From Catajapyx aquilonaris (Eukaryota), in the NCBI GenBank assembly GCA_000934665.2, contig JYFJ02002814.1, positions 1 through 50,348 on the forward strand: a DNA stretch of 50,348 nt. The letters run 5' to 3'. Below the pieces are notes generated by a model that did not search any database, was not told where the DNA came from, and saw nothing but the letters and a program-made list of their open reading frames with translations. The translations under genes and the position numbers were made by a program. Positions 24,901-27,900 of this stretch are shown piece after piece (within the stretch, counting starts at the first letter, position 1; each line of letters starts with the position of its first letter).

Positions 24901-27900
24901 AGCAGCTTTAGACCTTTCAAGCTGTCGTGGAGGCCATTTGATCTCGTTGCCTGTATTTTACATCTACAAAAAAATTACTCCGCAGAAAAATGCAAGGAAA
25001 GTTCTGATTTCTCAGCGAGAGGAGGCGATTTAGTGATCTAATAAGTCAGCCGTTACTTCAATAGCTTTACAGACAGGTTTGAACGTCAGGCACAATTTAT
25101 ATTACGTACAACTCTTCTACTTCACGACTAATCTCCAAATCAAAATGGTAGTAAATCTGCGACTCACAGCAGTTTGAGCGTTTATGTGGGTGCAGCCGAC
25201 AATTTTGGCTCCATTCAGCGGCTTGTCCTCCGCAGCTCGTTTTCTTAACGCCATTATGCCGGGCATTTCTGTTGGGGAAAAGAAACGGCATTACTCATCA
25301 GCCCTCAGGTAATAGCTTAGAAACCGATCACCATCTAGGGACCCAAACCTTGCTCAGCAATTTCAATCTCGCGCCTCCCTAAGGCATGCTGGTTGATGTT
25401 GCGTACGCAGAAGTCCGTGTAGCCCTTCGTATTCTTCTGGATCTTTTCCCTGGGAGACACATCCTCTTCTTCTGAGCTGCTTCCTGTATATGAAGCTGCT
25501 GGAAGCAAAATGGTAACATTAGTATCACTCCGATATGGTACATTTCATGATCCGCAACACCTGTACGGCATACACCGTACCGTTCTTCCTAGTGGACCTC
25601 TTGGTTTTCACCCTCCTTTTCCTATCCTCAGCACCTTCAACATAATCCCCACTCCTGGAGCGACGATCGCTCCTCTCCGAAGACGACCCCCTGTCCATGA
25701 CCTTTGCCCTCGAATTGTCCCTCACTATCTTTTCACACGCACCCTACCGCCATGTTCGTCCCGATTGTCTGATTGTGTCCCCCCTTCCCACCGAGAGAGA
25801 AAACCCCCGATCGATGCCACAGTCCCTGCTTTTGCCTGGTGCTGCTCTGGGGCACACTACTGGACTTAATGTACCTGCATCTGTACGCGTCTAATTATGT
25901 AGCAAGTACCGCGGGCCTGGATGCGCATACCTCCAGTGTTTGCCAGAGGGTAACAAAACAATGGAAAAAAAAGAAACAATCGCTCGAAGGTGACCCAAGA
26001 AAAAAATTCCAGCGAGCGCACTACAGGGTGGCTCAGCTGTGGTGAACAATCCACCCTGTAGCTCTCATTTTCCGGCGCAAAAAATACCAATTAAACTTGC
26101 CTCCCGCATCTAATTAACCGGTCTCTAATCCAATTTGGAGCCAATAACAGTTAAGTTTCAGTCTTTCCAAACTGGCGCAAAAATTTCGGACAACAGCTGT
26201 TGTTCATTCGCGAAAAAAACAACACATTTTTGGCAACCGAGTTCGACCACACCTTTTTGGAGCGCGACCAATTTTTATATTTAGCATCCCATTGTTAAGA
26301 GGCACGTAACACCGACAAGTATGCGGCACGTACGCACCGAAGTATGTCACGGTACATTTCAAGATAATACGATGCGAAATTCTGCACGGTTAATTAGGCA
26401 AAGTAATATACAGGAGAAAAAAAACTCGCAAATATGCGAATTCAAATCGAGGGGGAGGGGGGTGGAGGCAGGAAAATTCGGTTATGACGTATTCACACTT
26501 ACGCTTTTTTTCATTTAAAAAATCCGCTTGTCTTTCGCTTCATTTAACGGACAGACAGTTCGCTCTGATTTTAATATTAATTTATTTTATTAATTTAAAG
26601 AACGAAGTGGGTTAGGTAGCTCGGACAGATACCAACTTTCCCGTTCATAAGAATATAGAGATTTATTTTATTTATTTTTAAAAAAAGCGCGAGTGTGAAC
26701 GCGGCATTAAACCTACACGAGGTAGAGCAGATGGAAGCGAGGGAGGAACGACGTGAGTCTTGTCCTCGACGTCCAACTTCTAAGTATCTGGCCGACGTCG
26801 GCAGACTGAATCGACGTCGGTTTCGGTCCTTGAAACCACCTCCGCCTTCAAGCAGCTTCTCCGGAATCTGTCCAAGAAAAAAAAAAAAGTCGATTAAACA
26901 CTTAATATGACAGTGCATAAAATCGAATCATGCCCAAACACAACATTCCAATTCAATTGCGGAGCTTGATTCAACCGCCCGTTTCATCCGATTATTACGA
27001 GCAGTTTCAAATCGATTGAAACACTGTGTCACAACAGGATTGACCCCGTTTCACTTTTTTTTCACCTCATAACAATATAGGTCACTCCCAACACGTGGCC
27101 GAATATTTTTCCACAAAAATATTGCTTTTGGCTGCCAACAAAAAAAACGACCTTGCCCAACATGCCATTGTTCTCTCTGTAAAGCTGGCAATAAGCGCTG
27201 CCAAAATACATCGCACTGTTGGCCACGCCCTTAGTGTGACCCATTGTCGCAGGTCACTGGCATGAACCCAAAACTCTCTATTTTTTAACCCTCCTTAAAA
27301 AAAAAAAATCGACCGATCGTCCCCGACACGCGTCGCATGCTGCACAAAAGGTCGCGCAGTTTGTGACATCCCCGAGGCATATTTGGGCTAACGAGATAGT
27401 AGCTCAAGCGATAGGCTCTCTTTCCGACATGCACACAACAATGTTGACTCCCAATAATGTGCCGACATGATGGACGCCACTAAAATGTCGCAGTTCGTGG
27501 CATATAATGTAGTCAACAAGTACGGATGAATTCACCTTTTGCGCACTGTCATTATTCAGACGGCGATAATGTCGACAGTGAAAGGGCGTGCGATAGAAAA
27601 CGAGACGTGATATGCAGAGAAACCGCATAACGGAAACGATAACGATTAGCATGGCTCCACCTTTGTCTCATCGAAAAAGTCCTATAGAACGGCTCTGTCC
27701 CACTGTCTGTCTGTCCGTCTGTGGACAGGTATAATCATGGAGGTGAATTGAGCCTAAACCGCATGAGATAGCGAAAAACGGTTTTCGGATTCGGATTCAA
27801 CGTGACCAAAATAGGTCTAATGGTCAACTTCCGGTTTTCCGGGTTCACTATATCCGTTACAGGCGGGTTTGTCGTTTCCCGCTGCCCAATAAGAAAAAAA

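Follow-up and report, generated by a model that had tools for sequence, protein, structure and literature searches.

Two serine exons in one AHCYL/IRBIT gene

The AHCYL/IRBIT gene on the minus strand of the window (the whole stretch of DNA analysed, which at 50,348 nucleotides is one whole contig of the 286-Mb Catajapyx aquilonaris genome) carries two serine-rich exons, and this raises the questions of which part of IRBIT the second exon replaces, how the two are kept apart in transcripts and which kinase would act on the second. The reading that we consider the probable one is that the second exon is an additional N-terminal serine module which lies behind its own start exon, probably serves as a PKA-primed CK1 relay, is conserved among arthropods and has a homologue in molluscs. 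The features needed for the argument are given here in the order of transcription.

49937..50024, minus strand: canonical IRBIT serine exon, 88 nt, phases 0/1, with the S68-S77 equivalents in an RxRxxS context
35382..35655, minus strand: start exon of the alternative isoform, with ATG at 35459, 26 codons and a phase-0 GT donor
26717..26867, minus strand: alternative serine-ladder exon of the AHCYL/IRBIT gene, 151 nt (50 codons plus 1 nt), phase 0 in and phase 1 out
26799..26819, minus strand: upstream basic site RRRFSLP, with a PKA-type serine and Pro at +2
26717..26753, minus strand: RRxS priming site with serines at 0, +3 and +6, the +9 serine spanning the splice junction
25499..26716, minus strand: intron of 1,218 nt, GT..AG, absent from the spliced contig
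25498/25495, minus strand: NAGNAG acceptor of the first shared exon
25349..25498, minus strand: first shared AHCYL/IRBIT exon, with the S80/T82/S84/S85 equivalents and an acidic patch
22173..25268, minus strand: six more shared exons that encode the AHCY-like core, recognised by their GT-AG borders (all six), the open model and the identity of the core

The alternative isoform modelled from the ATG at 35459 runs through nine GT-AG exons for 529 codons without a stop, and its AHCY-like core is 91.5% identical to mayfly AHCYL (Cloeon/Neocloeon); orthologues carry the AdoHcyase domains PF05221 and PF00670. The model thus has two hallmarks of the IRBIT/AHCYL family (others being the loss of SAH hydrolase activity and a phosphorylation-dependent binding to the IP3-binding core), namely a C-terminal AHCY-like domain and an N-terminal serine-rich region with i+3 serines and equivalents of S80, T82, S84 and S85 (numbered in the first shared exon by spacing relative to PMC13319452). 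A tree of the core (35 rows, with Daphnia, Artemia and Oppia left out) gave the window no supported position within the insect-crustacean group. A third AG of the shared exon, at 25483 (minus strand), is in frame with the canonical exon; its use would remove the S80 and T82 equivalents, such a form occurs in many hymenopteran models, and joining it to the alternative exon gives an immediate stop.

The alternative exon is bordered by a pyrimidine-rich AG acceptor and a GT donor; its 50 residues have RRRFSLP at their centre and close with [12 protein letters not shown]. The initial annotation had described RRRFSLP as an additional basic site, and it is indeed present, starting at 26819 (minus strand). 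The same annotation had equated the spacing of the four serines with that of the canonical exon; the spacing is equal, with the refinement that the register to the shared exon differs, since in the window the first rung is followed by the S80 equivalent at +11 in the alternative exon and at +12 in the canonical exon joined to the same acceptor. The fourth serine (+9) is the junction codon itself, made of the exon's last T and the two bases that open the shared exon. Both dibasic sites fit R-R/K-x-S, and we take RRRFSLP, with its Pro at +2, to be a predicted 14-3-3 docking motif. Among the window's 100,692 six-frame codons there is a single instance of RRxSxxSxxS, the exon has one match in its own genome, and no Pfam family covers it.

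The alternative exon is spliced behind its own start exon

Run X1 (85,611 contigs) is the only public run with the locus and is not recorded as RNA; no RNA-labelled run is listed for the locus. Four of its contigs match the region 25380-28400. Contig 1 (2,711 nt, depth 36.9) shows zero differences to the alternative and shared exons and splices the one to the other at 25498, skipping exactly the 1,218-nt GT..AG intron, so that the possibility raised in the initial annotation of an untranscribed exon does not apply. A loose end of 30 letters at the 5' side of this contig matches the window from 35384, where the start exon of the alternative isoform has in-frame stops upstream of its ATG; the 5' end of this exon near 35655 is implied by the length of contig 1. 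Similar acidic first exons that end in Lys are found in Cloeon X3 and Hetaerina X2. Because the comparison of the contig's 5' part covers only 30 letters, we infer both the first-exon joint and that the exon at 35.4 kb marks the true promoter. In the architecture of the alternative isoform as such we have high confidence.

This start exon follows the canonical serine exon at a distance of 14 kb on its 3' side and precedes the alternative one, and transcripts that begin at it therefore cannot include the canonical exon. The first exon of the canonical form is outside the contig, and tblastn with the N-termini of relatives brought up no other first exon within the window. An ORF inside an intron, at 28164-27913, was a further candidate for this role and was rejected for want of support in run X1. 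No splice from the canonical to the shared exon occurs among the X1 contigs, which does not rank the two isoforms, since such contigs drop variants.

Conservation among arthropods

A query with the alternative exon gave 46 candidates, of which 5 proteins matched at 68-75% identity, the mayflies Ephemera and Cloeon among them, and a longer query retrieved 7 among 57, with decapods added. A profile search gave 815 matches among 7,984 candidates; the taxa and counts that follow come from the best 120 of these 815, to which cluster members were added (at most 15 per cluster). The matches listed come from mayflies, Odonata, Folsomia (Collembola), Daphnia, Artemia, decapods, amphipods, krill, spiders, mites and a soft tick. 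RefSeq isoforms with the alternative instead of the canonical module are present in Cloeon, Neocloeon, Hetaerina, three Daphnia species, Artemia, decapods, Varroa, Oppia and Ornithodoros.

Among the matches listed, 34 distinct modules were chosen by their upstream R[RK]xSLP site; the set includes the window and its close kin but neither Artemia nor a truncated mite protein nor any mollusc. Serine stands at +3 in 34/34, at +6 in 33/34 and at +9 in 24/24 spliced modules, counts that are partly circular, since R/K at -3/-2 is in the selection rule and the search profile contains the serines, and that include residues common to kin through relatedness. Between the rungs serine is found in 5 (+1), 1 (+2), 3 (+4), 6 (+5), 10 (+7) and 16 (+8) of the 34, and the inter-rung residues are variable across alternative modules. 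The sole exception at +6, in Hyalella (P0273), is an Asp, a natural phosphomimic. An upstream site of the SLP type, with Pro at +2, occurs in 16 of 18 arthropod genera, and the residue at +1 of the first rung is I, V or L in 15 of 24 distinct alternative contexts. RRxS and the i+3 serines are thus kept in orthologous exons, and the lack of conservation that the initial annotation had named as fatal to its proposal was not found.

A metagenome scan (373 pattern matches, four loci) yielded one alternative exon, at locus L002, which has a matching acceptor, a phase-1 donor and identical exon borders; loci L003-L005 were rejected as having no acceptor or no open frame. An HMM search of 1.84 billion proteins gave 9 hits, with no taxon attached. 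Other exons reach the same junction in the decapod models P0326, P0332 and P0333, one of which puts a dibasic site right before the S80 equivalent, and also in the tick models P0341 and P0344-P0347 and in Daphnia P0225; tick and mollusc models include start exons that have no ladder. The shared-exon junction looks like a hot spot for the exchange of priming modules.

A mollusc homologue and the age of the exon

In gastropods, bivalves and cephalopods there is an alternative module whose basic sites read KRHS and RRSS. Profiles of the arthropod (n=15) and mollusc (n=11) exons align in hhalign at 94% probability over 48 columns. With the arthropod HMM, every one of the 11 mollusc exons scored above at least 99 of its 100 shuffles, as against 1 of 13 canonical exons, and in the reverse test with the mollusc HMM 14 of 15 arthropod exons scored above their shuffles, as against 2 of 13 canonical ones. 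Two dibasic sites are conserved from insects to molluscs. The mollusc ladders are looser, with Thr at +6, and are broken in Mya and Pinctada, and the mollusc upstream site has no Pro. On these profile comparisons the mollusc counterpart is homologous to the arthropod alternative exon, which is therefore likely to be older than the arthropod-mollusc split.

None of the 96 named neopteran proteins that possess an N-terminus carried the alternative module, and 95 of them were canonical, in a protein sample that excludes fly AhcyL2 and in which the nine HMM hits with no taxon are not placed. Seven further hoverfly proteins and all fly AhcyL1 proteins sampled were canonical as well. We provisionally regard the alternative module as lost in Neoptera. 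Fly AhcyL2 may possibly descend from the alternative isoform.

The two exons look exclusive through promoter choice

The initial annotation had noted that the alternative and canonical exons share their phases and are not joined in frame, and this is what we find: joining them gives a frameshift and a stop within six codons. Its further description of the pair as mutually exclusive exons stands for the reading frame and is not supported for the splicing choice, since the alternative isoform has its own start exon between the two and since, in all seven species with both forms (7/7), the longest stretch common to them ahead of the shared exon has 3-4 residues. In Cloeon, the exons of a fused gene prediction follow one another as canonical exon, alternative start, alternative exon. 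Tandem mutually exclusive exons have equal phases and break the frame on joint inclusion, as here; they also have a common upstream exon and are similar in length and sequence, whereas these two have 151 and 88 nt and first exons of their own, none of them common in any of the seven species. The two serine exons thus look exclusive through promoter choice, not through tandem-exon splicing.

That they are nonetheless classic mutually exclusive exons, produced by tandem duplication and chosen by splicing from one promoter, is very improbable, even though phases, acceptor partner and four-serine spacing are all equal. The position of the start exon and the lack of a common first exon speak against it, and local alignments of the two window exons are at chance (protein p = 0.85, DNA p = 0.35), as against a 3'-anchored nucleotide comparison in which 30 of 81 positions are identical (null mean 20.4, p = 0.014, best of three shifts). 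In the same direction as this weak signal, 4 of the 15 arthropod alternative exons scored higher on the canonical HMM than 99 of their 100 shuffles; against it, hhalign gave the canonical profile less than 1% probability against the arthropod and the mollusc alternative profile alike. We regard the splicing-choice mode as largely refuted. The exon duplicate of the initial annotation was not recovered either, local alignments and profiles having detected no similarity to the canonical exon; between duplication of the canonical exon and convergence, there appears to be no good sign of duplication, although a very old one may lie behind the pair.

The alternative exon replaces the priming half of the serine-rich region

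In human IRBIT, PKD or CaMK phosphorylates S68, after which CK1 phosphorylates S71, S74 and S77 (PMC13319452, PMC4887697), while S80, T82, S84 and S85 are substrates of CK2 (PMC13319452). S80, S84 and S85 are proposed to occupy the IP3 pocket, and S71, S74 and S77 to contact a second, probably peripheral site outside it (Lin et al. 2026, PMC13319452); phosphomimics at S80/S84/S85 are enough to inhibit release (PMC13319452). Judged by spacing, the canonical exon holds the equivalents of S68-S77 and the shared exon those of S80-S85; the alternative exon therefore swaps the priming and relay half and retains the pocket-binding half. It alters the priming module, not the ligand, and the IP3-mimetic ladder proposed in the initial annotation is for this reason not supported: the equivalents of the proposed pocket-binding serines are in the shared exon. 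Nor is the PKA input that it had proposed new in itself, since PKA already acts on S62, S64 and S66 of human IRBIT, out of the i+3 register (PMC13319452). None of these three serines stands three residues before a rung, so the human PKA sites presumably cannot prime the relay directly; in the alternative form, unlike the human protein, the predicted PKA-type serine is the first rung itself.

The distinct canonical invertebrate priming contexts are RxRxxS in 12 of 13 cases and RRxS in 0 of 13, and the first rung of the alternative exon is RRxS. RxRxxS is the consensus of Akt, S6K and RSK; that of PKA is R-R/K-x-S, often with a hydrophobic residue at +1, and RRxS is also accepted by PKG, CaMKII and RSK. 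The canonical module combines an RxxS priming context with an Asp at +5 (S-x-S-S-x-D-S), an Asp present in 13 of 13 canonical sequences, and the alternative module lacks this combination, having at +5 Cys or hydrophobic residues, mostly Cys. A ladder with no canonical Asp may bind other surfaces.

We propose that PKA, rather than a kinase of the RxRxxS type, would phosphorylate the first rung and that CK1 would then fill the serines at +3, +6 and +9; this order of events we consider somewhat more probable than not. The filled ladder would license CK2 at the S80/S84/S85 equivalents, as is proposed for human IRBIT, and the phosphorylated product would bind the IP3 receptor and other IRBIT partners, although for the alternative isoform we consider binding and failure to bind the IP3 receptor about equally probable. 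The serine of RRxSLP, further upstream, would give PKA a second target and may dock 14-3-3. In cells that use the alternative promoter, the net effect would be that cAMP raises the IP3 threshold for calcium release and also turns on IRBIT's other targets. Counted from the first rung, the S80 equivalent stands at +9 in chelicerates and in Artemia, at +10 in the other pancrustaceans, at +11 in the window and at +12 to +14 in molluscs (and mostly at +11 in the canonical proteins sampled), and given this variation from +9 to +14 a direct relay onto S80 is not conserved.

The same architecture could instead be read by another kinase, with CK2 starting at the shared exon's acidic patch and back-filling the i+3 serines (S-x-x-D/E/pS), or with PKG, CaMKII or RSK priming in place of PKA, and with no cAMP input. 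This seems to us unlikely. Most pancrustaceans extend the 0/+3/+6/+9 chain to Thr at +12 and Ser at +15, chelicerates have an acid at +12, and CK2 tolerates pSer at +3 (PMC13319452), all of which is consistent with back-filling; yet the window's own acceptor puts a Tyr at +12 of the chain, and back-filling needs no dibasic sites, although two are kept from insects to molluscs. Somewhat more doubtful still is the idea that the exon encodes a segment at which PKA controls docking (to 14-3-3, ribonucleotide reductase, bicarbonate transporters or lipid kinases) or a phosphodegron, with weak or absent binding to the IP3 receptor. Inter-rung residues unlike those of the canonical module and the Pro at +2 of the upstream site are what a docking segment might show, and there are precedents for N-termini that redirect binding, since ribonucleotide reductase is bound by fly IRBIT and not by fly IRBIT2 (10.1101/737262) and N-terminal variants of Long-IRBIT alter target range and stability (PMC7966362, citing Kawaai 2017). 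However, the S80/S84/S85 equivalents, at which human phosphomimics inhibit release, are kept in the shared exon next to this segment, and we retain priming by PKA followed by CK1 as the preferred reading.

Published phosphosite tables do not bear on this choice: the supplements of three studies, on the phosphoproteome of crab ganglia (PMC12482308, 10 files), on oyster (PMC13280272, 7 files) and on cold in flies (PMC5431823), gave 0 matches to the module, which is evidence neither for nor against its phosphorylation. A fly head study (PMC7264355) has AhcyL2 sites 259 and 263 only.

Relation to known IRBIT systems

Human IRBIT (AHCYL1) residues 62-103 resemble the alternative isoform in the priming serine, the +3/+6/+9 serines, S80/T82/S84/S85, the acidic patch and the AHCY-like core (PMC13319452, PMC4887697). 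The human protein is primed at a PKD/CaMK site and the alternative module, as predicted, at RRxS; the inter-rung residues differ, and the alternative module has the extra upstream RRxSLP. The passages considered from PMC13319452 and PMC4887697 describe no human isoform in which the ladder is replaced. Drosophila has two IRBIT-type N-termini, AhcyL1 (IRBIT) and AhcyL2 (IRBIT2), which differ in binding and expression (PMC4926864, 10.1101/737262), but there the two N-termini belong to two genes and here to one.

Automatic RefSeq/GenBank models, labelled 'isoform Xn' and with no stated function, already contain the exon or its homologue in Cloeon dipterum (XP_065352214.1), Hetaerina americana (XP_071438928.1), Daphnia magna (XP_032790880.1), Ornithodoros turicata (XP_064486523.1) and Biomphalaria glabrata (XP_055882360.1). 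The Long-IRBIT (AHCYL2) variants V1-V4 reportedly keep one common serine-rich region, whereas in the alternative isoform it is the first half of that region which is exchanged; the likeness lies in alternative N-termini on one core, with altered targets or stability in the case of Long-IRBIT. Full-text searches found no paper on the alternative exon (subscription papers, e.g. Devogelaere 2008 and Kawaai 2017, fall outside their scope), and passages of PMC4926864, 10.1101/737262, PMC7966362 and PMC12955632 deal with fly paralogues or Long-IRBIT variants and make no mention of it.

A tentative scenario, which we put somewhat below an even chance, is that the protostome ancestor had two promoter-selected priming modules on one IRBIT, one with RxRxxS for growth-factor or calcium kinases and one with RRxS for cAMP (with a 14-3-3 site in arthropods), and that Neoptera lost the cAMP module. 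Such a loss, Drosophila AhcyL1 included, would explain why the cAMP module has been overlooked. If the scenario is true, cells could choose the second messenger that sets IP3-receptor sensitivity and transporter activity. Apart from this scenario, the alternative exon exchanges the usual kinase site for one predicted to respond to cAMP, so that animals with the alternative isoform likely have a second on-switch for IRBIT. The phosphorylation code of IRBIT is an open question, the priming kinase in vivo being unsettled even in mammals. The exon pair would amount to a natural swap experiment that has run since the arthropod-mollusc split, in which two unrelated modules converge on i+3 spacing in front of the same downstream serines, and it asks whether CK1 and the IP3 receptor read the spacing alone or the canonical residues. 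The prediction is that in crustaceans, ticks, mites, molluscs and aquatic insects cAMP directly restrains the release of calcium. The sign of this effect would be opposite to that of the known mammalian route, in which PKA acts on the IP3 receptor and IRBIT is released (PMC12837602).

Other features of the window

Just upstream of the alternative start exon, at 35720-36065, a near-exact repeat of about 165 nt flanks an N at 35898 and is probably an assembly overlap at a gap. Two X1 contigs match 27700-27920 in short pieces only, with dissimilar flanks, which suggests an intronic dispersed repeat, and a 275-nt X1 contig (depth 3.1) that matches the intronic stretch 25792-26066 exactly is possibly unspliced RNA or DNA. 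Towards the other end of the window lie an exon for THO complex subunit 7 at 291-839 (minus strand; Pfam THOC7, E 2.6e-24) and an ataxin-7-like, proline-rich exon at 6115-7131 (plus strand; SCA7 zinc-binding domain, E 1.4e-26).
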